DNA of 45,740 nt from an uncultured Dehalococcoidales bacterium (lineage in GTDB: Bacteria; Chloroflexota; Dehalococcoidia; GIF9; UBA5629), in NCBI GenBank assembly GCA_964582065.1, contig CAZOQG010000002.1, positions 1-45,740 of the forward strand, in the 5' to 3' direction. The notes beneath the pieces were generated by a model. The model was not told where the DNA came from. It saw only the letters and a list, made by a program, of their open reading frames with translations, and did not search any database. This document shows positions 6,491 to 45,605 of this stretch, piece by piece. Both the position numbers and the translations under genes were made by a program. Positions within the stretch are counted from its first letter, which is position 1, and each line of letters begins with the position of its first letter.

Positions 6491-6991
6491 CTACGGGGAT
6501 ATAACATCGATATACAGGTGGAGGGGGTCGTCGAGGTAGGGTTCATCTTCATCGTTCTTGTACAAACAAAAATCCACTCTCTGCCTTTCACCGACTACTT
6601 GAGGAATGAAACTGACTCTTTCTTCCCACCCTTCCTTGTGAGCCAGTGTGCCTACAGTTACGTTGGTTTTCTCGGTGCCCTCTATCGTTATCTTCACCAG
6701 ATAGCTGGCCGGCTGATACTCGTGGTTGACTACACCGACGACTATATCAACAGGGTCACCCAATATTACTTGCTTTGGGTAGCCCTCAGCCTTACCTTCT
6801 GTGCCCAGGATGTAGAATTCGGTAAACTTCTCGCCTTGATTTGGCGTAGCCACAAAGTAGCCAAGGCAGCCTAATGCTGCCACTATAGCTACCATCAGGG
6901 ATATAGATAAGCCTGTATCTAGCTTGCTCGTGCCTAGCCAGTTAGGCAAGCCTGCGTTCACGGAACATACCAGCCAACTATTGAGTTTCAT
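6491..6991 (-). CDS. Single-pass membrane protein resembling the C-terminal extracytoplasmic part of DUF1616 proteins
   Basis: The track ORF is trimmed to the ATG at 6991 (MKLNSWL...). One TM helix is present (LSISLMVAIVAALGCLGYFVA). It is followed by EKFTEFYILGTEGKAEGYP...VVNHEYQPASY, which I recognise as DUF1616-like. It appears to lack the usual N-terminal TM bundle. Confidence 0.45.
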   Translation of the reverse strand: MKLNSWLVCSVNAGLPNWLGTSKLDTGLSISLMVAIVAALGCLGYFVATPNQGEKFTEFYILGTEGKAEGYPKQVILGDPVDIVVGVVNHEYQPASYLVKITIEGTEKTNVTVGTLAHKEGWEERVSFIPQVVGERQRVDFCLYKNDEDEPYLDDPLHLYIDVISP

Positions 6992-7428
6992 TCCATAATC
7001 GATGCAAATTATACATAGGTGCCATCTAACCTGCAATGATTGGTTGCACTTCTCTTTGCGGCCTATGGGCAAGCGCTTATTGCCATCGCCGGAATCGCTA
7101 ACGCTTGGCGGATTGTCTTCCAGCTGGCTGACGTGGCGGTGTCCAGAGACCTATTTGCTGCCATTCTGGAGAGGATAACCCGGTTATGCCTGTCACCCGG
7201 CTGAGGACACCTGAGAGCAAGCAGGCAGCTGAAAAAGATAGGAGAAGTATCGTCTTTTTTCGGGTGGACAGCTTCGCCAGCGCTGATAGACGAGGATTCT
7301 GAGGTCTGTAGTGCACGGCTCGCATGTCCAGGACTACTGCGGGGCTCCGAGAGGGGGATTGACAACCAGGTGCCATGGATATATTATTAGTGACAAGAGC
7401 GATGAGGGTCAGGATACCTAATCGCGAA

Positions 7429-12757: not shown

Positions 12758-13417
12758 CTATCCCCGTGCTTTTCGTGCCTCGATTGCCTGTCTTAGTCGC
12801 TGGAAAATATCAGCGCCGAGGGCCTGGATTCTTAGGTTAGTTATGGTATCGAACGGGAGGTCGTCAAAATGGCCACGGTCCTGGATATATTCAATGTGCA
12901 GTTTGCCGTCCAAATTATGAGAGTGGAACATGGCGTCGTTTTTGCCATCGAACTCCACTGGGCTAATTCGGTTCTTTTGGCACATTTTCAGGTCGAAGGC
13001 AGGAGTAGCTTTGACCCATTTCCCTTCGATATACAGCTCAGCATAACCATGGGAGGGGAATAGGTTTGTCCCCGTCAGCTCTTTTAATTTGTCGGGCATA
13101 AGATGGTTCCGAATGGCGGCAAGGTGTAGGCGGGCGGGGATGCCCACGGCTCGGGCCAATGTAGCCAGGAGCACGGCTTTTTGTATGCAGAATCCCTCTC
13201 CTACCTCCAAAACCCTACTTGCCCGGTAGTATTCAGGAAGGTCACTCAGCACATAGATGTTGTACTTAATCTCATCCCTTACGAAATAGAAAAGGCTTTT
13301 AGCTTTGTCTGCGACCTTTTCCTGACCTGCACTTAAATCTTTGGCTTTTCCTTTTATCGATTCGTTGTCGCAGTCAAATGTAGGTGTAGGTCTCAAATAC
13401 CTTTTCATTGGGTCCAT
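12758..13417 (-). CDS. Transglutaminase-like cysteine protease-fold protein, paralogue 1
   Basis: The track ORF is trimmed to MDPMKRYLRPTPTFDCDNE... The upstream part of that ORF is an out-of-frame read into paralogue 2. Candidate catalytic residues are GEGFCIQKA (Cys), SHGYAELY (His) and TPAFD (Asp). Confidence 0.8.
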   Translation of the reverse strand: MDPMKRYLRPTPTFDCDNESIKGKAKDLSAGQEKVADKAKSLFYFVRDEIKYNIYVLSDLPEYYRASRVLEVGEGFCIQKAVLLATLARAVGIPARLHLAAIRNHLMPDKLKELTGTNLFPSHGYAELYIEGKWVKATPAFDLKMCQKNRISPVEFDGKNDAMFHSHNLDGKLHIEYIQDRGHFDDLPFDTITNLRIQALGADIFQRLRQAIEARKARG

Positions 13418-13421
13418 GATA

Positions 13422-14093
13422 CTATCCGTCCAGCACTTCCTGCTGCGCCTTCTCTGGATTAATGAAGTGGTAGAACTGCTTACTAGACTCCATCTTATAG
13501 ACCTTAGCCCAGGCAGCAAGTATTTCATCCAGCGGCACATCCTCATAATAGCCATGGTCTTTGACATATTCAATATGCAATTCACCGTCCAAATTATGAG
13601 AGTGGAATATGGCATCGCGTTTGCCATCGAACTCCACCGGGATGATTCGGTTTTCTTGGCACATTTTCAGGTCGAAGGCTGGAGTCGCTTTGACCCACTT
13701 TCCCTCAACGTATAGCCCGCTATAACCGTGGTAGCTGAACAGGTCTGTCCCTATTAGCTGTTTTAGCCTGTTGGGAACGAGATGGTTTCGAATGTCAGCA
13801 AGGTGTAGACGGGCCGGGATGCCCGCAGCTCGGGCCAGGGCAACAAGGAGAGATGCCTTCTCAACACAAAATCCCCTTCCAGTTGTCAGAGTCTTACTTG
13901 CTTGATAATCTTCAAGAAGATGCACTGGTAGCGGGTTGTATTTAATCTCATCCCTTACGAAATAGAAAAGGCTTTTAGCTTTGTCTACGACTTCCTCCTG
14001 ACTTCTGGTTAGATCTTGGGATTTTTGTCTTATGGACTTGTTGTCGCAGTCAATTCTAGGTGTAGGTCTCAAATACTCTTTCACTTGGTCCAT
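13422..14093 (-). CDS. Transglutaminase-like protein, paralogue 2
   Basis: MDQVKEYLRPTPRIDCDNKS...GRGFCVEKA...YHGYSGLYVEGKWVKATPAFD. By eye it is about 65-70% identical to paralogues 1 and 3 over the first 190 aa. Confidence 0.8.
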   Translation of the reverse strand: MDQVKEYLRPTPRIDCDNKSIRQKSQDLTRSQEEVVDKAKSLFYFVRDEIKYNPLPVHLLEDYQASKTLTTGRGFCVEKASLLVALARAAGIPARLHLADIRNHLVPNRLKQLIGTDLFSYHGYSGLYVEGKWVKATPAFDLKMCQENRIIPVEFDGKRDAIFHSHNLDGELHIEYVKDHGYYEDVPLDEILAAWAKVYKMESSKQFYHFINPEKAQQEVLDG

Positions 14094-14115
14094 GATGCTA
14101 TGCCCCGTGCACTTT

Positions 14116-14772
14116 CTACTTCGCTTTTTCTGCCTTAACCAACTGGTTCAACTGTGATCGAGACCCCCACCCGTAGTCCCGAACCCACCCATCATATATC
14201 TCGTCCAGCGGCACATCCTCATAACGGCCATGGTCTTTGACATATTCAATATGCAGTTGCCCGTCTCGGTTAAGTGAGTGGAATAAGGCATCGTTCTTGC
14301 CATCGAACTCCACCGGCATGATTTGGTTCTTTTGGCACATTTTGAGGTCGAAGGCAGGAGTCGCTTTGACCCACTTCTCTTGAATGTACAACTCGCAATA
14401 GCCGTGGTATGTGACCAGGGTAGTCCCAAGCATCTCTCTTGGTTTATCGGGAAGAAGATGATTCCGAATGTCGGCGAGGTGCAGAGCCGCTGGGATGCCT
14501 GCGGCTCGTGCTAGGGCAATCAGGAGCAGCGCCTTTTGAACACACCATCCCTCTCCTATCTCCAGAATCCTGCTTGCCCGGTAGTGTTCAGGAAGGTCAC
14601 TTGGTACATAGAAAGTGTACTTAATCTCGTCCCTCACGAAATAAAAGAGGCTCTTAGCCTTGCCCGTAATTTCTTGCTGACCCTTAGTTAGGTTTTGACC
14701 TTTTTGTTTCACCGACTCGTTGTCGCAGTCGATTGTAGGTGTAGGTTTGAGATACTCTTCCATTTCTCGCAC
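14116..14772 (-). CDS. Transglutaminase-like protein, paralogue 3
   Basis: MREMEEYLKPTPTIDCDNES...GEGWCVQKA...YHGYCELYIQEKWVKATPAFD. The ATG lies only 2 nt after the sucD stop. Confidence 0.8.
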   Translation of the reverse strand: MREMEEYLKPTPTIDCDNESVKQKGQNLTKGQQEITGKAKSLFYFVRDEIKYTFYVPSDLPEHYRASRILEIGEGWCVQKALLLIALARAAGIPAALHLADIRNHLLPDKPREMLGTTLVTYHGYCELYIQEKWVKATPAFDLKMCQKNQIMPVEFDGKNDALFHSLNRDGQLHIEYVKDHGRYEDVPLDEIYDGWVRDYGWGSRSQLNQLVKAEKAK

Positions 14773-17678: not shown

Positions 17679-18557
17679 GAGCACAAAGCTAAGGGGGAGA
17701 CGGTCTCCCCCAAAACGCCAAATTCACCCAGATAGTGGACTAGACATACGGCCTCTGCTAGTGGCTACATGCTTGATTGCGAAGCTACCGGGAAGTCTCC
17801 TGCAACGATAGAATATTATACAGGGAAACTGAGCAAGTTTCTATGGTGGACAGCGTCTCATTAGCTCACGCCTTTTCTTAGAGTAAGATGTAGGTACGGG
17901 TCTTTGGACCTGAAGAGGCTGTCTGAAAACCCAGGGGGGCTTGTCCCAAGTGGGGAGCTATCATCAAGAAAACCTCCTATTTCCAACCCAAGTGGGAAAT
18001 CCAGACCGAAAGCACCACTTTCTTCCCAGCAAAGTGGGAAATGAAATCTCATGGTTCGACTTTTGGGACAGGCTGTGAAGGTCCGTCCCTACGGTTCTCC
18101 ATCCCCTGTCGGGGTGGGGTTAGGCGGAGGGGGAATCCTCATCGTCTTCGAACCAACACACGATTTGAAATTCCCTTGACTTGTATAGTGAAGTTTGGCA
18201 AGGTGTTGCTTTTGCCAGCAGCTTGAACGGCAAATCGGAGGAATACGCAGATTCAAAATGGATTTGAGAGTCTGTCATTTGACAGTTCCTGTCCCCAAAT
18301 GTTGGCAGCCCGTATTTGAAAACTGGCCGCGGACATGTACGAAATCATGCCCAAATGACGCCGCACTATTCCTGTTGATATGCTGTTGTCGTCTCACAAG
18401 AGAGTCTTCCCGAGGCCAATACTTGTCGCAACTATCTAGGCCGGAGAAACGGCCGTGGTGGAACGTGCCGAGACGGACAAAGGAGATAAGAAGGTCAAAT
18501 CACAAAGCTGCGCCTGAGGAAGAACTTCTGAAGTATGATGGGTTCCCGTCTCTTGAA

Positions 18558-19721: not shown

Positions 19722-20151
19722 ATGTATCTCCTTCTGTGGCTTGATTGAAGGTTCTTGCTATGTTGAAAGACCGAGTCAGCCGCGGTTTCCTGCATTCCTG
19801 TGGCAATTATACACTCTGACGACGACAAACGCCCCCCTAGTCTCGTGTTTGTGCTTGAAAGTTCAGGACTTTGGCGCTTTCGCCCCGTCCCATCACCGCC
19901 TCATAACGGAATGACCATTCTTCAGAATCTGCCCCAAAGTACTACTTGCCATAACAGTGTAGATTCAGAGCTACTACAGTGGTAGAATAATCCCAAAAGA
20001 TGGTCAGACTTTGCGAGGCTAGGGTGGAGATGATTAAAGGCTTGCCGATGGTTAAGCTAAAGGAAATCCGTCTTGATGAAGCCAGTTACTTGATAGCTTA
20101 GCGGTCCTGTTGCACGTTAACGTTGCACTCAGGGAGACAGGAGGTGAAATT

Positions 20152-20445: not shown

Positions 20446-20692
20446 TACGGGCAAGGACGAGAGTTGAGGCTAGGAGTAGGTCTCCGTTCCCACCCCGGCA
20501 ACCCTACCCACCCAACCACCTCCCCTGGCCCGTAGGTATAGGCTGTTTTTCAGAACCGACCCCAAGTCCTGGCTGTTTTTTCACATGCAACTCAAATCTG
20601 GGGACATTGCATTTGGAAACCGTATCACTTCAAGCTTTCTTTCCATGACGACGGAGACCAATGTTATAATTGGGGCCCAGGAGGTGACTGCA

Positions 20693-21367
20693 ATGGAAAT
20701 CAAGGTTTTGGGAATATGTGGTAGTCCTATCAAAGGCGGTAATACCGAAGCTTTTCTCAGGCAGAGCCTTGAAGCTGCCGAAGCCACCGGCTATGCCAAG
20801 ACCGAGCTGATAACCCTGGCCGGCAAAGACATAAAAGACTGTCGTCATTGCAACTGGTGCGTCAAAAAGCAGGAGGAGGGTAAATTCTGCGCTCAGCAGG
20901 ACGATATGGTCGGAATATATCCTCACATATTAGGGGCTGATGCTTTGCTATTGGCCAGCCCTGTCTATATTGGTCGACTGTCCGGATATATGGCTTGCTT
21001 TACTGATAGGCTCCGGGCTTTCGCCTTCGGCAATATCTATGGCCAAAGACTGGGGAATAAGGTGGGTGGTGCCTTAGCTGTAAGCTGGGGAAGGAACTAC
21101 GGCATAGAGACGACACTGCTCACTATCATCTCTACATTCTTTATGATGGGAGTGATACCCGTTGGTCCGCCCCACGGTTTGGGCTCTCCTCTTGGTGCTG
21201 CCGGCCTGGCCAGTGAAGGTGGAACGGGAAAGTTCGACCCCGGAGACAAGCTAGGCGTGCTGCGAGATGAATATGGCCTTAAGGGGGCTCGGGCTTTGGG
21301 CAAGCGGGTTGCTGAAATCACCAGGTTAGTTAGAGCCGGAGAAGCTGCACAAATTGAAGGGCGATAA
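20693..21367 (+). CDS. Iron-sulfur flavoprotein-like NADPH-dependent FMN reductase
   Basis: The track ORF is trimmed to MEIKVLGICGSPIKGGNTE, with AGGAGG upstream. This is a flavodoxin-like FMN reductase N-terminus. A compact Cys cluster CRHCNWCVKKQEEGKFC (Cx2Cx2Cx9C) follows, as in Isf-type proteins. Confidence 0.7.
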   Translation: MEIKVLGICGSPIKGGNTEAFLRQSLEAAEATGYAKTELITLAGKDIKDCRHCNWCVKKQEEGKFCAQQDDMVGIYPHILGADALLLASPVYIGRLSGYMACFTDRLRAFAFGNIYGQRLGNKVGGALAVSWGRNYGIETTLLTIISTFFMMGVIPVGPPHGLGSPLGAAGLASEGGTGKFDPGDKLGVLRDEYGLKGARALGKRVAEITRLVRAGEAAQIEGR

Positions 21368-21505: not shown

Positions 21506-21640
21506 GTCATTGCGAGGAGCACAAGCGGTTGCGAGGCGTAGCCGAAGCAAACTCGGAGTGGGATTCCTCGCTTGCGCTCGGAACAAGCTCCGCAATCTCG
21601 GTAGGGGGCAATGAGATTGCCACGCTTCGCTCGCAATGAC
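21506..21640. repeat. Repeat element bounded by a 12-nt inverted repeat (gtcattgcgagg / cgctcgcaatgac family)
   Basis: gtcattgcgagg at 21506-21517 and ctcgcaatgac at 21630-21640 flank GC-rich palindromic sequence. The same family recurs at 28401-28560, with a fragment at 45440-45470. Confidence 0.7.
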
Positions 21641-21792
21641 ACTCGCGAATAAGGGCCGGCTCTAAAGGGGGGTAGAAAACAATATTTGTCATTTCAACTT
21701 TTGAGTCTGAAATTCTAAGTCAGCAATAATGAAAGGCTCAGAATGACAGCCAGGATTGATAAACGACTTCACTCGTTAGTGATGATAGAGGG

Positions 21793-23442
21793 CTAGAGTG
21801 AGTTGAGGATGCTCTCTATTTCCTCCGGGCTGTGAAAACGCCCTTCCTTTACTTCCCTGATAATACCATCGGCATCGATAAAGGAAGTTGTGGGGAAAAG
21901 CGCGGGTTGGTAAACCTCGTCAACCATTCCTTCTGAATCGAGCAGGACGGGGAAACTCAGTCCTTGGTTGTCAACAAAGCTCCTTACAGTTTCGGTGCTC
22001 TCTCTAACATTGATGGCAAGTATTACCAAGTCGTCATCTGACCATTCCTCAAAAACTGCCTGGATGTGAGGCATTTCAACTATACAAGGCTGGCACCCGC
22101 TCAGCCAGAAGTTGATCATTACTATCTTACCGCGAAGGCCGCTCAAAGTCAGGCTTTCGCCATCAATAGTCGGGAGGGTGAAATCAGGGGCGCGCATGCC
22201 TGCTCCGGTGCCGATGGGTAAGGCAGAGAGAGTTATTACTGGAAAGATATGAAGTGTCGCTTCATGTCCGGTAGCATCTTTTGACTTCAGTTCGACGTGA
22301 TAGCGCGTATAGGGCTGTAGCCCGCTCAAACTTACACTATGGTCACTGGTCGACTCGTCAAGAGATACTGTGATTGACTCCCAAGAATCAGTTATCCAAT
22401 ACTCAACCTCGCTGGTGCCAGGTTCATCAGTTTGCCACTTTATCGTGGCACTTGATTCGGCAACATTGGAAACGTCCACATGCCAAATCACTGGAGGGCT
22501 TACATCGGTTAGAGTCGTGAATGAATACTTCTTAGACAGAGCTTGATTCTCTAGGTTATAGCCAGACAACACTTGGAAGTGACACGTAGTATCGGGGGCG
22601 AGACCATGCACCGCTACGCTATGCTCAGTAACCAGGGTTCCATCGGGCGAAGTGGGTACGTGGGGGCCATGTTCAGTGTCGCATACTATGGCGTCGCTGG
22701 CAGACGGCTCATCGGTCACCCAGGTGATAATGGCGCTCTTATCCGTAGCTGAGGCCGATACATCGGAAATTGTGGGCGCTATGCTCTTCATGTCTGTATT
22801 GGTCTTTATGCTGTTGAGTATATCTTCTATTTCATCTTGGCTACTGAAATGTCCCACGGTTGCCAATCTGATAATGCCCCTGGCATCGATGAACAAATGC
22901 ACGGGGCAGCGCATGATATCGTAATCTGCGCCGACTCCTTCTGAATCAAGCAGGACGGGAAAAGTTAAACCATGTCTTGTGATGAATTCTTCGACCGCAG
23001 CGCGGTCCGCCCAAACATTAATGCCCAATATCGCCAATTCCTTTTCTGGCCATTTATCGCGGGCTCCCTGGATGGAGTGAATCTCCTGGTCTAGTCTCCC
23101 GTCGTGGTTACCAAGATCCCCCCAAAAAGTGAGCATCACCATCCTGCCCCGAAAGTCCCTCAAACTGACGTTCTGGCCATCAGTGGTTTGCAGACTAAAC
23201 TCCGGGGCTCGATTGCCGACCTCGGGACCTATTTCAGGAGCGGTGATTAATGCAACCACGCCCCAGATACCCGCTCCAAGAAGACAGACACTGATTACGG
23301 CTGTAGCAAAGACATGCTGCGGAGCAACTTTCCCTGCTGTCCTCAGGGGTGCGAAGAACCTGGAAAGTATGGCATTGGAAGACTTGGCAGCTCTGCGCCT
23401 TGATTTCCCGACTGTGTTATCCTTTTTTTTCGGCATCGCCAA
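21793..23442 (-). CDS. Membrane-anchored protein: basic N-tail, TM, degenerate (Cys-less) thioredoxin fold, 2x FN3/PAP-N-like domains, TlpA-like thioredoxin (CQPC). Referred to here as ZFT-C.
   Basis: The TM helix is FATAVISVCLLGAGIWGVVALI. The first redoxin-like domain reads MLTFWGDLGNHDG where CXXC is expected. The FN3-like repeats are SASDAIVCDTEHG...HSVAVHGLAPDTTCHF and GTSEVEYW...HSVSLSGLQPYTRYHV. The C-terminal domain is MINFWLSGCQPCIVEMPHIQAV...FPVLLD. The start is TTG at 23442 or ATG at 23436. Confidence 0.8.
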   Translation of the reverse strand: MAMPKKKDNTVGKSRRRAAKSSNAILSRFFAPLRTAGKVAPQHVFATAVISVCLLGAGIWGVVALITAPEIGPEVGNRAPEFSLQTTDGQNVSLRDFRGRMVMLTFWGDLGNHDGRLDQEIHSIQGARDKWPEKELAILGINVWADRAAVEEFITRHGLTFPVLLDSEGVGADYDIMRCPVHLFIDARGIIRLATVGHFSSQDEIEDILNSIKTNTDMKSIAPTISDVSASATDKSAIITWVTDEPSASDAIVCDTEHGPHVPTSPDGTLVTEHSVAVHGLAPDTTCHFQVLSGYNLENQALSKKYSFTTLTDVSPPVIWHVDVSNVAESSATIKWQTDEPGTSEVEYWITDSWESITVSLDESTSDHSVSLSGLQPYTRYHVELKSKDATGHEATLHIFPVITLSALPIGTGAGMRAPDFTLPTIDGESLTLSGLRGKIVMINFWLSGCQPCIVEMPHIQAVFEEWSDDDLVILAINVRESTETVRSFVDNQGLSFPVLLDSEGMVDEVYQPALFPTTSFIDADGIIREVKEGRFHSPEEIESILNSL

Positions 23443-23559
23443 CTACCCTGGTTCTCAGCCGTTGAGCTGTACTGCTCGCCGCAGGTTCTTGATTGTGTTA
23501 TCGGCGGATTGGAGGACGGTAAACATGTGGTCACATTCAGCAGCCACGATTACAGGTTA

Positions 23560-25449
23560 CTAGAGAGAGTCGAGTATCTCCTCAATTTTCTCCTGGCTGC
23601 TGAAATACCCAACCTGTACTTCCTGAATAATACCCTCAGTATCGATGAAGAAAGTAGTGGGCCATTGATTTACGCTGTAATTGGCATGGACTGCTCCTAC
23701 CGAATCAAGCAAGGCGGGGAAAGTCAATTCTTCGCTGTCCATGAAACTCCGGATAGTGTCAGCGTTATCAATTTTATTGACTCCGAGTATTGCCAATTCA
23801 TCGGCTGACCAGTTATCGGAAACCGCCTGGATGTGAGGCATTTCAGCTGCGCAGGGACCACAAGCTACAAACCAGAAGTTGACCATCACTATTTTGCCTC
23901 GAAAATCACTGAGAGTCACGTCTTGCCCGTCGAGGTTATGCAGGGTGAAGGGGGGAGCGCGGTTGCCTTCTTGATAACCTACCGGGATGGTGGGGAGAGT
24001 CTTAAATTGGTCTGCATCAGAGGTGGTTTCATTTCCGCTGGTGTCTTTCGACTTCACCCTGAAGTGATAGGTCGTGTCGGCCTCCAGGTCGGTTAGTGTG
24101 ACGCTATGGCTGGTGGTCAGCTCCTCATCCAGTGTTGTGGTTGAACCGTAATCAACGGTTGTCCCGTATTCCACCTGGCTGGTGGCTTCTTCGTCCGTTG
24201 ACCATTCAATGGTGGCGCCTGTTTCGGTAGTATCGGAGACATCGACATCCGAAATCAGCGGCGTCGTCGTATCAGCCTGGGCTGAAGTTGTGAAATCCCG
24301 TTCGTATGTCGTCTCATTTTCGCTTTCGTCTTCTGATATCAGAGTCAAGTGATAAGTCGTATTTGGGTCGAGGTCGCTTAAGGTTACAGAATGGTTAGTA
24401 ACCAAAGCCTCGTCGGGCTCTGTCCAAGTACAAACTTCACCAGGGTCGCATATCATGACCTGGCTGGTAGCTGGCTCGTCGGTCTCCCAGGTAACAATAG
24501 CCCCTGTGGCGGTTATTGACGAAAGCGACACGTCTTGGATTACCGGGGGCGTGCTATCTGGAGCGGTGGGTGGTGGTGTGGTTCCTGGCTGGGAGAATGT
24601 GTAGTACAAATAGAGGCCGAGAAAGCCTACAAACACGGCCAGGAGACCGAACGAGGAGATTCTTAGCAGCAGCCGTCGTGTCGGCGGTAAGATGCCCCAT
24701 TCTCCTGGCGCCGGGCGTGCCACTTGATACGGATAGGGGCGCCCCGGCGACAGAGGCCTCGCCGTTGCTGTCGTAACGCTGGCTGCTACTGGTGCAGCAC
24801 GTAGTGCTTGCTGCTGCATCCCACCATATGGCGTGGCAGGAGGCGGACCATAACTTGGAGGATATCCGGAACCGGGGCCAGCAGGAACGCCATGCGTGGG
24901 GTAATTATACTGAGGGCCAGTGATATAGCCTCCGCGGAATTGCTGGCCTGTAGCGCTTTGTGGCCTCGGTGGTGCCGGGCTTGGTGGTGCTGGTGGGGGA
25001 GGGCTTGGTGTGGCGAAGGGTGTAGGGGTGGCTGCTGCTGGGGCGGCGGGTGCTGCTTGGCCCTGCATCTTTTCGAGTAGCTTCTTGCCAAGAAGCAAAC
25101 CACACCTTGGGCACTGTCCGGTTGCAGGGTTAACCGCAATGCCACACTGGGGGCAATTGAGTTGGACACTTGTCTGAGGGGCTCTGGGAAACTGCTGACC
25201 AACAACAGTTTGCCGGCCGGGCGCAAGATACGTTACTTGCTGCTGCATCGCCGGGGCTGCCTGCGGCACGCCTCCATATCCGGCCGTACCACCGAGAAAG
25301 CCGCAATTAGGGCAGTATTTGGATCGGGTAGGAATAGTGCCGCCACATCTGGGGCAGCCAGGGACTAGTCTGGCACCGCATTGTAAGCAGAATTGCTGTC
25401 CTATTGCATTGTGCCAGCCACAATTAGGGCATCTGGTTATTTGCTGCAC
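23560..25449 (-). CDS. Zinc-ribbon, Pro-rich linker, TM, 2x FN3/PAP-N-like domains, TlpA-like thioredoxin (CGPC) membrane protein. Referred to here as ZFT-B.
   Basis: The N-terminus has CPNCGWHNAIGQQFCLQCG, CPRCGG...YCPNCG and CPQCGIAVNPATGQCPRCG. A P/A-rich segment follows. The TM helix is ISSFGLLAVFVGFLGLYLYY. The FN3-like repeats are ATSQVMICDP...HSVTLSDLDPNTTYHL and ATSQVEYGTTVDYG...HSVTLTDLEADTTYHFRV. The thioredoxin domain is MVNFWFVACGPCAAEMPHIQAV. The start is GTG. Confidence 0.85.
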   Translation of the reverse strand: MQQITRCPNCGWHNAIGQQFCLQCGARLVPGCPRCGGTIPTRSKYCPNCGFLGGTAGYGGVPQAAPAMQQQVTYLAPGRQTVVGQQFPRAPQTSVQLNCPQCGIAVNPATGQCPRCGLLLGKKLLEKMQGQAAPAAPAAATPTPFATPSPPPPAPPSPAPPRPQSATGQQFRGGYITGPQYNYPTHGVPAGPGSGYPPSYGPPPATPYGGMQQQALRAAPVAASVTTATARPLSPGRPYPYQVARPAPGEWGILPPTRRLLLRISSFGLLAVFVGFLGLYLYYTFSQPGTTPPPTAPDSTPPVIQDVSLSSITATGAIVTWETDEPATSQVMICDPGEVCTWTEPDEALVTNHSVTLSDLDPNTTYHLTLISEDESENETTYERDFTTSAQADTTTPLISDVDVSDTTETGATIEWSTDEEATSQVEYGTTVDYGSTTTLDEELTTSHSVTLTDLEADTTYHFRVKSKDTSGNETTSDADQFKTLPTIPVGYQEGNRAPPFTLHNLDGQDVTLSDFRGKIVMVNFWFVACGPCAAEMPHIQAVSDNWSADELAILGVNKIDNADTIRSFMDSEELTFPALLDSVGAVHANYSVNQWPTTFFIDTEGIIQEVQVGYFSSQEKIEEILDSL

Positions 25450-25557
25450 GCTGTAACCGTTTCCCGATTGCTTCGGCGCATCTTGCCCTTTCTGCTATCC
25501 ACTTGTCTTCCTGTTGTGCCTCTATTAGTTTTGCAGGACATACCGAATGTCTTCCCT

Positions 25558-25565
25558 ATTATACA
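25558..25565 (-). promoter_or_regulatory. Extended -10 element (TGTATAAT) upstream of ZFT-B
   Basis: The minus strand reads GGTGTATAATAGG, about 109 nt upstream of the GTG start. The same octamer and several leader blocks are shared with the ZFT-A upstream region. Confidence 0.4.
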
Positions 25566-25754
25566 CCTAGGCAAAGCAAAAAGTAGAACATCAAGTGCGG
25601 AACCCGTAGCCGCAAGTGATGCTGGAAGGTACGGCGACAGGCTTGATGGGCTGTATGTCGGCAGGGGCGAAGCCTGTCACAGCGCTTTAGTTTGCTCTGG
25701 CTGCACTAGAAACAAGTTAGGCAAACCGCCGAGGAGCTGATGGCAGCAAAGAAG

Positions 25755-27752
25755 TCATTGAATTCGGTCGAATACACCTTCTATTTCCGCTGCGTCGAGG
25801 AAACGTCCAATCTTGATTTCTCTGATAATTCCGTCACAGTCGATGAAAACGCTTGTGGGTACTGTCCAGATATGATAGCTATCGATAGTCGTATCTTCTG
25901 TATCAAGTAATATGGGAAAACGGAAATGCCCATATTCGTCTGTATGTCTCTCGATAATCGTTTCAATACGGTCAGTTCTGTCTCCATCAACGCATACAGT
26001 AATCACTGCCAAACATGCGCTATCATCATTTTGCCTGCATGCATCGCCATGATAAACCTCGCGAATGAAGGGAAACTCTACTACGCAGGCTCCACAACGG
26101 GTTGACCAGAAGTTAAGCAATAGCTTCTTCTTGCCCACGAACTTGGTTAAGTCAACGGTCTCACCGTCGTTGGGCGATTCGGGATCATTGGCATCATTGT
26201 ACTCTGGCAGGGATGGGATTAGTGGAGCGCGGTCGCCTACTTCGTGGCCGATAGGGATGGCGCGAAGAGTTATTAGTGTTTTGGTATTGGAGGTGGCCTC
26301 ATTTCCGCTGGCATCTACCGATTTTGCCCTGAAGTGATAGGTTGTATTTGGCTTTAGGCCGGTCAGTCGGACAGTATGGCTCTGTTTCAAGTTGTCCTCT
26401 AAGGGCGTGGTTTCGTGGCCGCCGTCAGTTTTCCAATACTCAACCTGGCTGGTGGCATCTTCGTCAGTCTGCCAGGTCATGGCGGTGCTTATGTCCGTCG
26501 GTGGGGAAACCTCGACTGCCAAAATGTCCGGCGGGGTTGTATCCTTGAGTTTGAAATATGCGGTAACGTTCTTATTCGAGTCCATAATAATCGGAATAAC
26601 GGGGATTTCTGCCGAGGAACCTGGGACATCACCCCCCCAGTGCTCGAAAGTGTAACCACTCGCGGCGGCAGCGGTCAGTGTCACCTCAATACCAGATGTA
26701 TATGTTTCATTCTCGGGAGACCGAGATACCTGTCCTCCGGCTTCGGGCTTACGGTTTGTGGCCAAGATATAGGTTTGGGCGGCGGCAGGAGGGGGAATTG
26801 GATTAGTAATAGGGTTGGCGGTTGAAGTCGAAGGCAGTGAAACATTCCCTATTTTGGTCACAGCGTAGTAGCCGCCAAGGCCTGCGATTGCAAGAAACAC
26901 GGCTGCCCAGAACCCTCGCAGTAGAAGCTGTCTCGTTGACGGTGGGATGCTCCACCCTCTCGGTGCGGGCCAGGAAGGACGCGCCGCTTTTCGTGCTGCG
27001 CTGGCTACGTTGGCTAGCGTTTGCCTTGTCCAATGCGGGATGTCCCACTCTCTCCGTTCACCGCGTGTTATTTCTGTTAGGAGCGGGCTCCGCGGCGCGA
27101 CCACATCCGGCTCTTTCGGTTCGGTGGCGGTAATTTCGTTTAGAAGCGGACTCCGTGATGGTGGAATGGTCCCTTCGCTCGCTGCAACCGGTGCAGCCGG
27201 TGTTGATTGCTCATGAGTCTTCCGAGGTGGCCCGTACATCCAGCCGCACTGTGGGCACAGTCCGGATTCTGGGTCAACGCTAGCGTCGCACTTGGGGCAT
27301 CTGTACTCGTGTGCCGCGTCAGGAACTCCAGGGGATTGCTGATGTGCAATGGTTTGTGGGCTTGGTGCCGACACAGGTCTCACTGGCGTTGGCGCAGGCC
27401 CTGTTTCTTCGAGTGTACCACTTCCTGTTGGCTGCGGAGTCTCTATAGGTAGCATCTTACCCCGGTGGTCGCAGCTCGGACAACATCCATCCGCAGTATT
27501 AACCGTGGTGTGACACCTGGGGCACATGTATTTGGGCCCCGGGTAAGAAGGTTTCGGGGATTGCTGGTGTGCAGAAGCTTGCGATTCGCCTTTATCTAAC
27601 TGCTTCCAGGGGGCATCCTGCGGAGTGCACTCCTGGCAGAAATAGGTACGTGCATTATGGGGCAACTTTGCGCCGCATTTCCTACAGAAACGCTGACCGG
27701 AGGCGTCTTCGGGCGGCACGAAATACTTGGGCTTGTGGCTCATCGGGGACAT
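25755..27752 (-). CDS. 3x zinc ribbon, TM, InlB-B-repeat-like domain, FN3/PAP-N-like domain, TlpA-like thioredoxin (CGAC) membrane protein. Referred to here as ZFT-A.
   Basis: The zinc ribbons are CRKCGAKLPHNARTYFCQEC, CPRCHTTVNTADGCCPSCD and CPKCDASVDPESGLCPQCG. RSPLL(N/T)EIT is repeated. The TM helix is GFWAAVFLAIAGLGGYYAV. YTSGIEVTLTAAAASGYTFEHWGGDV...VTAYF is an InlB B-repeat-like pattern. The FN3-like domain is ATSQVEYWKTDGG...HTVRLTGLKPNTTYHFRA. The thioredoxin domain is LLNFWSTRCGACVVEFPFIREV. Confidence 0.85.
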   Translation of the reverse strand: MSPMSHKPKYFVPPEDASGQRFCRKCGAKLPHNARTYFCQECTPQDAPWKQLDKGESQASAHQQSPKPSYPGPKYMCPRCHTTVNTADGCCPSCDHRGKMLPIETPQPTGSGTLEETGPAPTPVRPVSAPSPQTIAHQQSPGVPDAAHEYRCPKCDASVDPESGLCPQCGWMYGPPRKTHEQSTPAAPVAASEGTIPPSRSPLLNEITATEPKEPDVVAPRSPLLTEITRGERREWDIPHWTRQTLANVASAARKAARPSWPAPRGWSIPPSTRQLLLRGFWAAVFLAIAGLGGYYAVTKIGNVSLPSTSTANPITNPIPPPAAAQTYILATNRKPEAGGQVSRSPENETYTSGIEVTLTAAAASGYTFEHWGGDVPGSSAEIPVIPIIMDSNKNVTAYFKLKDTTPPDILAVEVSPPTDISTAMTWQTDEDATSQVEYWKTDGGHETTPLEDNLKQSHTVRLTGLKPNTTYHFRAKSVDASGNEATSNTKTLITLRAIPIGHEVGDRAPLIPSLPEYNDANDPESPNDGETVDLTKFVGKKKLLLNFWSTRCGACVVEFPFIREVYHGDACRQNDDSACLAVITVCVDGDRTDRIETIIERHTDEYGHFRFPILLDTEDTTIDSYHIWTVPTSVFIDCDGIIREIKIGRFLDAAEIEGVFDRIQ

Positions 27753-27861
27753 GCTATCACTACTCCCCGATTCCTTCGGTGCAACTCAGCACTTCTGCTA
27801 TCTTTATTGGTGCCTCTTTTGGGCTTATCGGTTTGAAGAAACACGGCATATACCTATCTTA

Positions 27862-27869
27862 ATTATACA
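27862..27869 (-). promoter_or_regulatory. Extended -10 element (TGTATAAT) upstream of ZFT-A
   Basis: The minus strand reads GCATGTATAATTAAG, about 110 nt upstream of the ATG at 27752. It is paralogous to the element upstream of ZFT-B. Confidence 0.4.
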
Positions 27870-28303
27870 TGCAGGAAAAACAAAGTAAAATCAACTGTAC
27901 TCGTTCAACCCATTGGCGAGGCATCTCTCTTGTCTCAAGGCTGTAGGGACGGACCTTCAGGTCTGTCCGCTTCGGACGGGCCTGAAGACCCATCCCCACA
28001 TTTGCTGTGGCACTGGGGTTGACGTTGTTTCGCTGTGCTGTCCTAAACTTTATGAGACTTCTCTTTTCGTGCGAGCCGCGTAGCGTGAGGTTTTGACCTC
28101 GTCCGATCCTACTAGGCGACCTTAGAAGGTCGCGCTTACATTCAGTGACTTGTAGCATTGTTTGCGAAATTGCTTCGCGGAGCCTGTCCCGACCTTCACG
28201 AGATTCTTCGGTCGCTACGCTCCCTGGGAATGAGAGAAGGCGAAGTGCTCAGAACCACACCAAATTGTCATTGCTACGAAAATAGATTCTCATCCTTTAT
28301 GTT

Positions 28304-28360
28304 GGGTAGATTGGAGCATCGGCTCCAATCACGCCTAGAGCAGATGCTCTAGGCTACCCT
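28304..28360. repeat. 57-nt structured repeat, copy 1 (identical to 45549-45605)
   Basis: The sequence is gggtagattggagcatcggctccaatcacgcctagagcagatgctctaggctaccct. An outer 6-bp stem (gggtag/ctaccc) encloses two perfect 8-bp hairpins with 4-nt loops (attggagc-atcg-gctccaat and cctagagc-agat-gctctagg). Confidence 0.9.
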
Positions 28361-28468
28361 TATTTTCGTCCTCCGTGGTGCCGATTGCAATAGGCATGAC
28401 TGATTGCGAGGAGCGTAAGCGACCAAGCAATCTAGGACGAAGGCGCGACTGTGAGATTGCTTCGCTTC

Positions 28469-28560
28469 GCTCGCAATGACAGGAAGGGAGAGCTCGCAAT
28501 GACAGGAAGGGAGAGCTCGCAATGACAGGAAGGGAGAACTGAGAATGACACAAGGCGAAG
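28469..28560. repeat. Tandem 23-nt repeat: 3 perfect copies plus 1 degenerate copy
   Basis: gctcgcaatgacaggaagggaga occurs at 28469-28491, 28492-28514 and 28515-28537. A degenerate unit, actgagaatgacacaaggcgaag, follows. The array is contiguous with no spacers. Confidence 0.9.
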
Positions 28561-28807
28561 CGGTCGGAATGGCCCGGAACCGAGAATACGGTATCCACAT
28601 TCTGAGTAAGACGGTATCACCTATCTGAAGGAGATAGTGAACTGGCGAGGCGACGTGATTGCCACACACTGCGTCCCAGTAGGGTAAACAGATGCACTCA
28701 GTCAGGTGTTGCAGTTGTGGTCTTATTCTACAGCGTAGACTAACGCTGATTGTGTCGATCCCTACACGTGGGCTTGTGGGTTCAGTAGCTGTTGCGCCGC
28801 CGTTCGC

Positions 28808-29158
28808 TTATTGATGGTTGTCCCTGGATTGCATAGGGCCGCTGTAGCCGCAACTTCGTTCATTTGGGCATCGTCCATATGCTTTGTTAATCCTGGCGCC
28901 ACAGCGGGGGCATGTGTATCGTGATGTCATGCGGAGAACATGCGGGGATTTTCGGGTTTCAGCGTCCTGGCGCCCTGTCAGCGGAGGAACAGTCGCCGCT
29001 TTCGCCGCCGCATTTGTTGCTCGAAGTCGGATATCCTTATGTTCCATTTGGCCAATGAAGCCACACTCCGGACAGTTTCCAGAGGCGATCTTAGTTTTGG
29101 CACCACACTTGGGGCACCTGTATCGGGACTTGAAATCATCTTGTACTTCGTGTGGCAT
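28808..29158 (-). CDS. Soluble double zinc-ribbon protein. Referred to here as ZnR-D.
   Basis: YRCPKCGAKTKIASGNCPECG and YTCPRCGARINKAYGRCP resemble the ribbons of ZFT-A and ZFT-B. No TM helix is present. The start is uncertain (ATG at 29158 or TTG at 29200), and neither has a good Shine-Dalgarno. It lies 40-80 nt downstream of the serS stop. Confidence 0.5.
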   Translation of the reverse strand: MPHEVQDDFKSRYRCPKCGAKTKIASGNCPECGFIGQMEHKDIRLRATNAAAKAATVPPLTGRQDAETRKSPHVLRMTSRYTCPRCGARINKAYGRCPNERSCGYSGPMQSRDNHQ

Positions 29159-29240
29159 ACCGTTGCGTTTCACTGTAGCACAACCGAAGTCGCACTTCAA
29201 ACGTTTACAGAAGAGCCTGTTGTGGGCTGGCTCTCAATGC

Positions 29241-45548: not shown

Positions 45549-45605
45549 GGGTAGATTGGAGCATCGGCTCCAATCACGCCTAGAGCAGATGCTCTAGGCT
45601 ACCCT
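45549..45605. repeat. 57-nt structured repeat, copy 2 (identical to 28304-28360)
   Basis: All 57 nt match by direct comparison. The flanking bases differ on both sides. Confidence 0.9.

Follow-up and report, generated by a model that had tools for sequence, protein, structure and literature searches.

The window analyzed here, i.e., the whole 45,740-nt stretch of an uncultured Dehalococcoidales genome, carries three consecutive minus-strand genes whose products, ZFT-A, ZFT-B and ZFT-C, end in redoxin domains of the TlpA/ResA type. On balance, we consider it likely that they represent a Chloroflexota/Dehalococcoidia-specific set of surface-displayed, CcdA-fed thiol:disulfide oxidoreductases.

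Domain architecture, fold and topology

ZFT-A (25755–27752, 665 aa), ZFT-B (23560–25449, 629 aa, starting at a conserved GTG) and ZFT-C (21793–23442, 549 aa) are intact open reading frames, and all features within them lie on the same minus strand. The N-terminal 60 aa of ZFT-B are conserved, though omitted by gene callers in close relatives, and for ZFT-C an ATG at 23436, two codons inside the reading frame, is the more likely start. The original prediction had assigned one modular plan to all three proteins; coordinates, strand, transmembrane (TM) helix, FN3 and redoxin domains bore this out, but ZFT-C has a short basic N-terminal tail devoid of zinc ribbons and an extra redoxin without CxxC.

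In ZFT-A and ZFT-B, three Cys4 ribbons each (27246–27686 and 25102–25431, the latter within disordered Pro/Gln-rich linkers) precede one hydrophobic helix (26859–26927 and 24595–24672, the latter corresponding to helix 260–285 in the AF2 model), as had been expected. The ribbons of ZFT-B scored over the Pfam gathering score (Zn_Ribbon_1/DZR), those of ZFT-A gave a weak DZR match. Behind the helix, Pfam recovered all the domains proposed earlier, namely an InlB-B-repeat (26547–26750; Flg_new_2, E = 1.3e-14) and one FN3 domain (26286–26516; FN3/Pur_ac_phosph_N) in ZFT-A and two FN3 domains each in ZFT-B (24289–24540 and 24001–24255) and ZFT-C (22513–22770 and 22267–22482). ZFT-C matched the Pfam Redoxin model as well.

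The C-terminal redoxins likewise matched the expected type, with the active-site strings FWSTRCGAC in ZFT-A (domain 25797–26216, Pfam AhpC-TSA/Redoxin; CGAC at 26085–26096), FWFVACGPC in ZFT-B (23563–23973, Pfam Redoxin, E = 2e-27; CGPC at 23851–23862) and FWLSGCQPC in ZFT-C (21796–22203; CQPC at 22084–22095). By sequence and by predicted fold, the closest solved relatives are ResA, Etrx1/2, StoA and TlpA. The FN3 and Trx domains of ZFT-B were modeled by AF2 with a pLDDT of 90–95, and the comparison with ResA gave a TM-score of 0.92–0.94 at an rmsd of 1.1–1.3 Å in Foldseek and E = 8.6e-19 in phmmer (1st9). An alignment of 18 sequences shows no variation at the ResA-type Glu (E536), located three residues past the CxxC position, or at the cis-Pro (P597). 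CxxC itself is present in all 13 A/B-like sequences of type 1 and has been lost from the five of type 2. Membrane-anchored peroxiredoxins, to which the best Pfam match (AhpC-TSA) and several source names including the JGI name “peroxiredoxin” would point, are very improbable, as the active site follows the W/F-x-x-x-C-x-x-C pattern of TlpA/ResA, the peroxidatic PxxxT/SxxC motif is absent, and ResA-type models and structures were far ahead of BCP/PrxQ (103 vs. 41 bits for ZFT-B).

Cys4 ribbons require the reducing conditions of the cytoplasm, and domains of the FN3, InlB-repeat and TlpA types usually lie outside the cell. Because of these domain habits and of flanking charges obeying the positive-inside rule, with three Arg in the seven residues preceding the ZFT-B helix and none following it and about 12 K/R ahead of that of ZFT-C, we infer a single-pass type II topology for all three proteins (N-terminus in, C-terminus out), which agrees with the placement proposed originally, i.e., ribbons inside and FN3/redoxin domains outside. 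The juxtamembrane motif W.IPP.TR.LLLR, described before as conserved, is indeed common to A and B, but in this lineage and locus L001 only, and orthologues keep just a basic RR/KR cluster. Outside the membrane, the Pro/Thr linker together with two Ig-like modules (InlB-B-repeat and/or FN3) would keep the redoxin approximately 8–10 nm off the membrane.

Divergence within the array and the link to CcdA

The order SerRS-D-A-B(-C), with D standing for the soluble zinc-ribbon gene ZnR-D, is shared by at least 15 MAGs of uncultured Chloroflexota/Dehalococcoidia, and the A and B orthogroups retain a fixed order in many MAGs at 36–96% identity. The A-type redoxins form a separate orthogroup with an A-specific insert and a nearly fixed dipeptide (CGAC in 14 of 19), and the B-type active site reads CxPC across related MAGs. 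Judged from these sequences, A and B represent two old orthogroups, each conserved on its own, and not recent local duplicates, and the “three-fold local amplification” suggested earlier was consequently wrong in emphasis, with C being found in four loci. The multi-component and sensing roles suggested along with it are speculative. ZFT-A (CGAC) and ZFT-B (CxPC) might serve different clients.

ZFT-C itself combines a TM helix containing a conserved Cys (23245–23313) with an N-proximal redoxin (22789–23220, aa 75–218), which shares 45% identity with the ZFT-B redoxin. Over the FN3-FN3-Rdx region, ZFT-C and ZFT-B are 47% identical (E = 4e-87). Orthologues were found only in L003, L017 and L027, the first redoxin always being without CxxC, and sequence comparison thus marks ZFT-C as a B-like derivative restricted to four loci. 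Its extra redoxin would be catalytically dead and could probably act as binding or scaffold module.

The reported absence of ccdA/dsbD from the window was confirmed, as phmmer with a Dehalococcoidia CcdA query gave no match among all window ORFs; neither was any trx, msr or cytochrome-maturation gene present within these 45.7 kb. Related genomes, however, feature a second, tight and same-strand cluster of the order Trx-CcdA(DsbD_TM)-small redoxin-ZnR-FN3-FN3-Rdx-further redoxins (L004, L019, L021, L022), and three MAGs contain both this and the window-type array (L021/L029, L022/L016 and L019/L032). Since array-bearing relatives have such a CcdA-linked paralogous cluster, the missing ccdA in the window is unremarkable. 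The paralogous clusters show that the family is linked to the CcdA reducing pathway, and by analogy with these relatives a CcdA-type electron source may be expected in the window's own genome. Here, a CcdA-type membrane shuttle, encoded elsewhere and fed by cytoplasmic thioredoxin, would hold the redoxin domains in the reduced state, and these could in turn reduce disulfides or other oxidized thiols of envelope or S-layer-proximal substrates.

The ZnR-FN3-FN3-Rdx protein of the CcdA-linked clusters has lost CxxC in every case. Together with domain 1 of ZFT-C, this implies that not all members are catalytic and that a binding role is possible. An improbable but related option is that the proteins are mainly structural or adhesive, with an Ig-like stalk and a thioredoxin-fold head for binding and redox activity being secondary or absent, as modules of the FN3 and InlB-repeat kinds are commonly found in surface proteins and CxxC was lost repeatedly while the fold was kept (type-2 ZnR-FN3-FN3-Rdx proteins and ZFT-C domain 1). 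Conservation of CxxC, Glu and cis-Pro in A, B and domain 2 of C over 36–96% identity, as well as the Trx-CcdA genes adjoining the paralogous clusters, argue for the oxidoreductase reading instead.

Zinc-ribbon tails, ZnR-D and gene expression

ZnR-D (28808–29158, minus strand) was found exactly where predicted, with an ATG start, 116 aa and two Cys4 ribbons (aa 15–32, 29063–29116; aa 83–103, 28850–28912), the second of which has the spacing CxxC...Cx5C. All eight Cys are invariant among 12 aligned orthologues, the protein matched Zn_ribbon_LapB in Pfam above the cut-off (31.7 bits), and its orthologues immediately follow SerRS in 16 related loci; ZnR-D is a genuine, conserved gene. AF2 modeled the ribbons with a pLDDT of 75–83 and the disordered linker joining them with less than 50. 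The collinear alignment with ZFT-A residues 74–171 (E = 7e-9) identifies ZnR-D as a free-standing paralogue of ribbons 2–3 in the ZFT-A tail.

The profile of ZnR-D retrieved 124 matches from 1.84 billion protein representatives. Of ten larger proteins examined among these, seven were (InlB)/FN3+Redoxin proteins and one was an InlB-containing protein of 407 aa without redoxin match. In this search, the two-ribbon unit was thus fused almost exclusively to FN3/redoxin proteins, which indicates a specific link between ribbons and redoxin rather than a generic anchor. The tails of A and B, with three Cys4 ribbons, disordered linkers and, in ZFT-A, two RSPLLxEI motifs (27129–27158 and 27063–27092), a cytoplasmic linear motif kept in A orthologues and some B-like family members, may constitute a family-specific interaction module. 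ZnR-D would be its soluble copy, most plausibly co-assembling with the tails or competing for a cytoplasmic partner.

The zinc-ribbon protein Ruc of Mycobacterium tuberculosis, which has a disordered tail, can be a redox switch (PMC7448276). In analogy to Ruc and Hsp33 as zinc-thiolate switches, or to membrane anti-sigma factors, the ZFT proteins could be transmembrane redox sensors, in which the external CxxC domain would read the extracellular thiol/disulfide state and a conformational or oligomerization change would be passed via the single helix to the ribbon tail, holding or releasing a cytoplasmic partner, with ZnR-D as decoy, partner or output. The specific coupling of the ribbon pair to this redoxin family, the adjoining conserved paralogue, the RSPLLxEI motifs and the existence of members without CxxC would fit. 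Nevertheless, we regard this as rather unlikely, as the array has no conserved neighbor that could provide an output, be it a transcription factor, a sigma factor or a kinase, Pfam gave no zf-HC2 or anti-sigma match, A and B strictly retain the catalytic residues expected of turnover enzymes, and the approximately 130 disordered residues between ribbons and helix (AF2, ZFT-B) offer a poor conformational route.

Between ZnR-D and ZFT-A, the supposed “repeat field” does contain repeats, but is really a 1055-bp intergenic region (27753–28807, minus strand) harboring the ZFT-A promoter, a 23-bp ×3 tandem repeat (28469–28537) and short dispersed REP/MITE-like repeats, the latter also occurring at further sites of the window and at other Dehalococcoidia loci. 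It is approximately 85% conserved in L001 and enlarged compared to about 110–180 bp in most relatives. A promoter-like site (27862–27889, minus strand; TTTACT-16-TATAAT, 10 of 12 matches in the promoter scan) includes the extended -10 element TGTATAAT (27862–27869), about 110 nt upstream of the ZFT-A ATG, and the same element lies at a similar distance (~110 nt) from the ZFT-B GTG (25558–25565, minus strand). Both are invariant in the window and L001 and visible in most type-1 loci, and the window contains only five copies, each of them on the minus strand. ZFT-A and ZFT-B each have their own predicted TGTATAAT promoter, and none of the window copies serves ZnR-D, located 1 kb from ZFT-A; a single operon does not follow from this arrangement. 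The D-A-B linkage could partly reflect the general synteny of the clade.

Comparison with known systems

The earlier statement that no characterized system shows this architecture held against NCBIfam, source names and the literature: no NCBIfam model fits the ZFT proteins, source annotations are generic (“redoxin domain-containing protein”, “peroxiredoxin”), and our literature and family searches returned no paper or curated family for ribbon-TM-stalk-redoxin proteins. A role as ResA/CcmG or TlpA equivalents in cytochrome c or cuproenzyme maturation, acting on apocytochrome CxxCH or on Cys of Sco/CoxB, is improbable, although ResA is the best match both in sequence and in structure, with StoA, DsbE/CcmG and TlpA coming next, and one source automatically named a family member CcmG/DsbE. 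A and B stay under the NCBIfam cut-offs for ResA, DsbE and TlpA, and ResB/ResC/CcsBA, Ccm or Sco genes were absent from the window and the neighborhoods examined. Moreover, neither the number of paralogues (three to six per genome) nor the long stalks and the tails in the cytoplasm characterize the maturation enzymes, and many Dehalococcoidia lack c-type cytochromes. ZFT-A, ZFT-B and ZFT-C are consequently an uncharacterized variant of the ResA/TlpA disulfide-reducing class and not a new type of system.

Domain architecture and redoxin heads

The three consecutive minus-strand genes ZFT-A (25755-27752), ZFT-B (23560-25449) and ZFT-C (21793-23442) are intact ORFs of 665, 629 and 549 aa, respectively. 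The modular plan which the original prediction ascribed to all of them holds for the reading frames, the membrane helix, the FN3 modules and the redoxin, but not for the zinc ribbons, which are missing in ZFT-C. In Pfam searches, ZFT-A featured a weak DZR match, Flg_new_2 (a divergent InlB B-repeat, E=1.3e-14), FN3/Pur_ac_phosph_N and AhpC-TSA/Redoxin, ZFT-B featured Zn_Ribbon_1 and DZR above the gathering score, two FN3 domains and Redoxin (E=2e-27), and ZFT-C two FN3 and two Redoxin stretches. A hydropathy and cysteine scan located one strongly hydrophobic helix in each protein and, N-terminal of it, three regular CxxC...CxxC sets each in ZFT-A and ZFT-B; the divergent active sites reported before were likewise recovered (RCGAC in ZFT-A, ACGPC in ZFT-B and GCQPC in ZFT-C).

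The charge bias around the helix follows the positive-inside rule with an N-in/C-out orientation. This agrees with what the modules require, as Cys4 ribbons suit a reducing compartment such as the cytoplasm, whereas TlpA, FN3 and InlB-repeat modules are at home outside. The redoxin heads are predicted to be extracytoplasmic, behind an N-terminal membrane anchor. An AlphaFold2 (AF2) model of ZFT-B, built from an 18-sequence alignment, placed the helix at residues 260-285; the ribbons were of moderate confidence (pLDDT 60-80), residues 54-94 and 133-261 came out as disordered linkers, and both FN3 domains and the C-terminal residues 490-629 scored high (pLDDT 90-95 each). The FN3 pair resembled neogenin/Ihog-type tandems in Foldseek, and a Pro/Thr linker together with two Ig-like modules would give the three proteins a stalk of an estimated 8-10 nm.

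Despite the twin-arginine look of the TRRLLLR preceding the ZFT-B helix (TRQLLLR in ZFT-A), Tat-dependent insertion was judged unlikely, since the RR pair varies among orthologues (RRFVRP, KRGFP, RQGLP, RKGGLS); the strong hydrophobicity of the TM helices in the family (mean Kyte-Doolittle 2.0-3.1) also speaks against a Tat signal. The juxtamembrane motif W.IPP.TR.LLLR, described earlier as conserved, is common to ZFT-A and ZFT-B in the window, but turned out to be lineage-specific rather than general. Within ZFT-A (26859-27000, aa ~250-298), an additional segment of the B type, PAPRGWSIPPSTRQLLLR with its helix (compare ZFT-B aa 246-285), comes after the ancestral REWDIPHWTRQ; it is found in the window and in L001, one of the homologous loci (L001-L033) from related uncultured Dehalococcoidia/Chloroflexota MAGs. 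This arrangement points to a mosaic evolution of the paralogues A and B or to gene conversion between them.

The modeled head of ZFT-B superimposed on ResA (1st9/2h1b) with an rmsd of 1.1-1.3 A and a TM-score of 0.92-0.94 (Foldseek), and its sequence matched Bacillus subtilis ResA with E=8.6e-19 at ~30% identity, followed by Streptococcus pneumoniae Etrx2, StoA, DsbE/CcmG and TlpA. It shows a TlpA/ResA/DsbE-like thioredoxin fold including the ResA-type N-terminal hairpin and central insert. The corresponding active site (W/F-x-x-x-CxxC, Glu and cis-Pro) is present in ZFT-A (CGAC), ZFT-B (CGPC) and the C-terminal redoxin of ZFT-C (domain 2, CQPC). Across the 18 sequences, the Glu three residues past the CxxC position (E536) and the cis-Pro P597 are invariant, and ribbon cysteines are conserved wherever ribbons exist; the CxxC itself is present in A/B-like sequences of window-like arrays (type 1) and absent from the five sequences of a paralogous, Trx-CcdA-linked cluster (type 2). 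The catalytic head of the array proteins is, in this respect, an ordinary member of the TlpA/ResA-like family. That the proteins act mainly in a structural or adhesive manner, as the FN3 tandems might invite one to think, appears quite improbable next to this active site.

The best NCBIfam model for all three proteins was ResA (NF002854, cut-off 170 bits), which ZFT-A (59.5 bits) and ZFT-B (103.4 bits) did not reach, and which ZFT-C exceeded (187.5 bits) only as the sum of two domains; ZFT-A and ZFT-B also stayed under the curated DsbE and TlpA cut-offs. Moreover, Pfam searches detected no resB/resC (ccsBA) families among the window ORFs or in the homologue neighborhoods examined. Low scores and missing resBC-type neighbors both argue against ResA proper or system II, and there is little to recommend a dedicated role in cytochrome c or cuproenzyme maturation, even with ResA as best model. 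Some sources label such proteins as peroxiredoxins, which is misleading, as the site reads NFWxxxCxxC, of TlpA/ResA type, and lacks the peroxidatic PxxxT/SxxC. With a BCP score of 40.7 bits against a cut-off of 140 and relative scores pointing the same way, a peroxiredoxin identity is hardly credible. No zf-HC2/anti-sigma domain was matched in the array proteins (Pfam, E<=0.01), and no sigma factor gene was found in the window neighborhood or the homologous loci. Fused reductant transporters of the DsbD/ScsB/DipZ type have a multi-pass, CcdA-like core with two essential membrane cysteines, which does not fit the single TM helix per protein, and the helices of ZFT-A and ZFT-B contain no cysteine.

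In place of ribbons, ZFT-C carries a short K/R-rich tail. Its residues 75-218 form an extra, membrane-proximal redoxin (domain 1), 45% identical to that of ZFT-B, which reads FWGDLGNHDG at the CxxC position. ZFT-C orthologues occur in four loci only (window, L003, L017, L027), and domain 1 is devoid of a CxxC in all of them. Such CxxC-less redoxin domains could serve as binding or scaffold modules. The TM helix of ZFT-C (23245-23313) retains a cysteine, Cys53, in four of four orthologues (SVCLL, GTCLF, ATCLI, GTCII). Lipoprotein processing at this residue was considered and dismissed, as the preceding residues form no lipobox and the hydrophobic stretch continues after the cysteine.

Zinc ribbons and the soluble protein ZnR-D

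The soluble two-ribbon protein ZnR-D is encoded exactly where originally predicted (28808-29158, minus strand; ATG start, 116 aa), within an ORF span of 28808-29200. Zinc-ribbon/DZR profiles (PF12773, PF13240) were supported by ZFT-B (Zn_Ribbon_1 42.4 bits, cut-off 25; DZR 40.0 bits, cut-off 27.3), and ZnR-D matched Zn_ribbon_LapB with 31.7 bits (cut-off 25.7). The ribbons of ZFT-A scored below threshold (DZR 22.9 bits), yet comprise three regular Cys4 sets. All ribbon cysteines of ZFT-A, ZFT-B and ZnR-D are conserved among orthologues, and the ribbons may coordinate a metal, either Zn or Fe.

Orthologues of ZnR-D directly follow SerRS in 16 related loci (E=1e-26 to 1e-78) and keep the eight cysteines as well as an inter-ribbon motif, G.MEHKDIRLR. 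In the AF2 model of ZnR-D (pTM 0.32), the two ribbons fold independently of each other (pLDDT 75-83), with a disordered linker between them. The protein is collinear with ZFT-A residues 74-171, i.e., with ribbons 2 and 3 at equal spacing (E=7e-9). Searching 1.84 billion representative proteins with a ZnR-D profile gave 124 hits, only ~5 of them free-standing D-like clusters. Ten larger hits were checked: the whole two-ribbon unit aligned in nine, seven combined (InlB)/FN3 with Redoxin, and one was an InlB-containing protein of 407 aa with no redoxin match. These hits tie the two-ribbon unit specifically to the redoxin family and argue against the idea of a generic N-terminal anchor used for many ectodomains of Chloroflexota membrane proteins; they are also the strongest support for the functional connection between ribbons and redoxin that was sensed earlier. 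An apparent ribbon match in an 880-aa ORF of L017 proved to be FtsK, probably a low-complexity match.

A further cytoplasmic feature, the linear motif RSPLLxEI, is kept in ZFT-A orthologues and some B-like family members, where ERREW.FP and then a basic cluster lie between it and the helix. In three loci (L014 9986-10384, L026 11249-11644 and L028 11209-11640), a free-standing protein of ~130-145 aa is encoded just upstream of a B-like gene and contains the N-terminal ribbon module of the B type twice (DZR 79.9 bits for L026, the sole one checked against Pfam). These could either be soluble ribbon proteins of another kind than ZnR-D or result from the splitting of a gene.

Most plausibly, the tails of ZFT-A and ZFT-B and ZnR-D would mediate cytoplasmic protein-protein interactions, serving assembly, localization or regulation. 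A more far-reaching option is that they constitute a metal- or thiol-responsive module controlling, or controlled by, the external redoxin head. We regard such a module as rather unlikely; if true, it would represent an undescribed, Dehalococcoidia-specific single-pass transmembrane thiol-redox signaling or assembly system, operating alongside CcdA or independent of it. A transmembrane redox sensor in general is an unlikely reading as well, if a little less so.

Occurrence, gene neighborhoods and transcription units

ZFT-B has 406 significant homologues in a collection of 5.8 billion proteins, and those with a name are 'redoxin domain-containing protein' entries from Dehalococcoidia/Chloroflexi MAGs. 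When one genome per GTDB species was scanned, full-length matches came only from uncultured Chloroflexota/Dehalococcoidia MAGs; outside Chloroflexota the FN3 part alone matched. Mapping the domains of all fetched loci with phmmer resulted in two conserved contexts. Type 1 follows the order LysRS-SerRS-ZnR-D-A-B-(C)-(FMN reductase)-...-SucCD in at least 15 MAGs, with 36-96% identity for ZFT-B. ZFT-A orthologues form a distinct redoxin orthogroup: 14 of 19 read CGAC, and an insert peculiar to A, Y.D.NPE.SPN, lies N-terminal of the active site. ZFT-B orthologues carry CxPC. A, B and C being individually conserved orthogroups, the array paralogues are ancient, and a recent origin of the three-fold local amplification proposed before can be discarded. 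The paralogue-specific CxxC dipeptides are in turn consistent with different clients for the three proteins.

The type-2 context (L004, L019, L021 and L022; partial in L023-L025) is a tight, same-strand cluster, located at 8293-13805 in L004, which encodes a thioredoxin, CcdA (DsbD_TM), a small redoxin (CKEC or CADC) whose signal resembles a lipobox, a ZnR-FN3-FN3-Rdx protein, an FN3-FN3-Rdx protein (CSAC) and a double redoxin. Its zinc-ribbon member has always lost the catalytic cysteines. This adjacency to Trx and CcdA links the family to the classical reducing pathway from thioredoxin via CcdA to TlpA-like proteins. Three MAGs carry both contexts, namely VGNX01 (type 2 in L021, type 1 in L029), JADHXB01 (L022 and L016) and VGNY01 (L019 and L032), and CP070642.1 combines type 1 (L012) with a partial type-2 cluster (L025) with no CcdA within 10 kb. 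The absence of ccdA from the window ORFs, noted earlier and confirmed here, is hence unremarkable, given that three type-1 MAGs carry a Trx-CcdA cluster elsewhere, and we infer that CcdA is encoded elsewhere in the source genome.

On balance, we lean toward ZFT-A, ZFT-B and ZFT-C being surface-displayed thiol:disulfide reductases of the ResA/TlpA class, mounted on Ig-like stalks, whose heads would be reduced through CcdA and which would serve different clients.

Convergent to the array, an FMN_red-family flavoprotein with a CRHCNWC motif is encoded at 20585-21367 (plus strand), and this neighbor recurs in many type-1 loci (L001, L007-L009, L017, L020, L029). Downstream of SucCD, at 12758-14772 (minus strand), lie three tandem transglutaminase-core paralogues of 289, 223 and 218 aa; the first two ORFs overlap by ~200 nt, so that one start is probably mis-set. 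Relatives have two such genes conserved there. A DUF1616 ORF at 6491-7072 (minus strand) covers only profile positions 128-294 of 307 and may be a truncated gene or have a mis-set start.

In the window and L001, an extended -10 box, TGTATAAT, lies invariantly ~110 nt upstream of the ZFT-A and ZFT-B starts, followed by a similar leader. It is also visible upstream of A and B in most type-1 loci, where it was read by eye; the window copies were confirmed separately. This 8-mer occurs five times in the window, always on the minus strand (7008-7015, 17815-17822, 19806-19813, 25558-25565, 27862-27869), with ~1.4 copies expected by chance on both strands. Four copies precede tRNA-Ser, an acyl-CoA dehydrogenase, ZFT-B and ZFT-A, and one more is located close to where the 6491-7072 ORF starts. 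The box is probably a strong promoter signature of the source organism. ZFT-C starts 117 bp after ZFT-B with no such box in between and may therefore be co-transcribed with it. ZnR-D is separated from SerRS by 82 bp, but from ZFT-A by 1 kb; together with the separate boxes of A and B, this makes D-A-B-C a syntenic group, not demonstrably one operon. The GTG start of ZFT-B, for which gene callers cut ~60 aa in close relatives, is supported by the conserved N-terminal ribbons and the conserved start context.

What had been called a repeat field between ZFT-A and ZnR-D is a 1055-bp intergenic region that does contain short dispersed repeats and a 23-bp tandem repeat in three copies; further copies of its short repeats are scattered over the window and over other Dehalococcoidia loci. 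The window also has two identical copies (28304-28360 and 45549-45605) of a 57-bp element with a double hairpin, AGGGTAGCCTAGAGCATCTGCTCTAGGCGTGATTGGAGCCGATGCTCCAATCTACCC, which is present at 91-94% identity in the Dehalococcoidia MAG loci L023 (382-445) and L011 (4258-4290). It had no Rfam match at the gathering threshold, at which tRNA-Ser was the only match in the window; a structured RNA and a mobile repeat of small size are both conceivable. A palindromic REP/MITE-like unit (..CATTGCGAGCGAAGCGAAGCAATCTC..) at 28450-28550 and 21612-21641, partly arranged as the 23-bp tandem repeat, is dispersed over many Dehalococcoidia loci (e.g., L005, L006, L012, L026, L033) and creates spurious ORFs such as 28335-28669.

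Significance and comparison with known systems

How thiol redox state is controlled outside the cytoplasm is well understood for Proteobacteria and Firmicutes. For Chloroflexota/Dehalococcoidia, which possess unusual envelopes and abound in deep lakes, aquifers and anoxic sediments, it is to our knowledge practically unexplored. The array family predicts several stalked surface reductases per Dehalococcoidia genome, a mixture of catalytic and catalytically dead redoxin domains, and a specific cytoplasmic zinc-ribbon module, with its soluble copy, tied to stalked reductases. If the ribbons regulate or organize the reductases, this would assign a concrete role to the common, functionally undefined 'N-terminal zinc ribbon-TM' architecture. 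If not, annotation would still gain, as entries named 'redoxin domain-containing protein' could be specified as stalked ResA/TlpA-like reductases and sorted into defined orthogroups (A, B and C).

As the original prediction had it, no characterized system was recognized: full-text literature and NCBIfam yielded no paper or curated family for the ribbon-TM-FN3-redoxin architecture. With ResA/StoA of B. subtilis, which are membrane-anchored, extracytoplasmic and reduced by CcdA, the ZFT-B head has the fold, CxxC, Glu and cis-Pro in common. Like ResA, the array proteins are predicted to have an N-terminal anchor and an outside catalytic domain, and their relatives adjoin Trx-CcdA in related MAGs. 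However, ResA is an anchor followed by a Trx domain (~180 aa), whereas ZFT-A and ZFT-B add a three-ribbon tail of 250-290 aa and a two-module Ig-like stalk; here, moreover, three paralogues and a soluble ribbon protein are found, without resBC nearby and with ZFT-A and ZFT-B below the ResA cut-off. Bradyrhizobium TlpA and DsbE-CcmG are periplasmic reductases with a membrane anchor and belong to the same thioredoxin-like subfamily. They match less well (TM-score ~0.65; 48 bits vs. a cut-off of 230), act on Sco, CoxB or apocytochromes and carry neither ribbons nor FN3.

Arabidopsis SOQ1 consists of a stromal HAD domain, a TM helix and lumenal Trx-like, NHL and C-terminal domains, and is CCDA-dependent. 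Its layout is analogous in that the reducing side carries a soluble domain, the membrane is spanned once, and a TlpA-like Trx and beta-rich modules lie on the oxidizing side, and ZFT-B gave a weak sequence match to SOQ1 (7djj). Given the HAD domain instead of ribbons, the other accessory domains and the eukaryotic thylakoid, this is an analogy only.

Cytoplasmic N-terminal Cys4 ribbons on single- or multi-pass membrane proteins of monoderm bacteria are common and functionally undefined, e.g., in ZnR-PspC and YdjG (PMC11237479), and the Clostridioides difficile ribbon-TM protein CD2243 has a soluble partner, CD2242 (bioRxiv 10.1101/2024.03.08.584076). Compared to such DZR/Zn_Ribbon_1-TM proteins, the two-ribbon unit of the array is a distinct subfamily tied to redoxin ectodomains. 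In Ruc (Rv0991c), a soluble, redox-regulated zinc-ribbon chaperone, a small ribbon plus a disordered region form the redox switch (PMC7448276). ZnR-D is likewise small and combines ribbon with disorder, but has two ribbons and no linkage to chaperone genes. A possible connection of DZR with ECF sigma factors in the literature was dropped, because the protein in question was an unrelated one from a phage.

[quoted passage not shown] Both by sequence and by structure, Etrx2 (4hqz, 2yp6) and Etrx1 (4hqs) rank among the top matches of the ZFT-B head, and the array resembles them in its predicted surface TlpA-like reductases, several putatively CcdA-fed paralogues and a monoderm-type envelope. Unlike ZFT-A and ZFT-B, the Etrx proteins are lipoproteins with neither stalk nor cytoplasmic domain, and their client MsrAB2 is encoded alongside, whereas no msr gene is found near the arrays in the window and related-locus neighborhoods. 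In function, the closest analogies to the array would be this pneumococcal system, Etrx1/2-CcdA-MsrAB2, and ResA/StoA together with CcdA.
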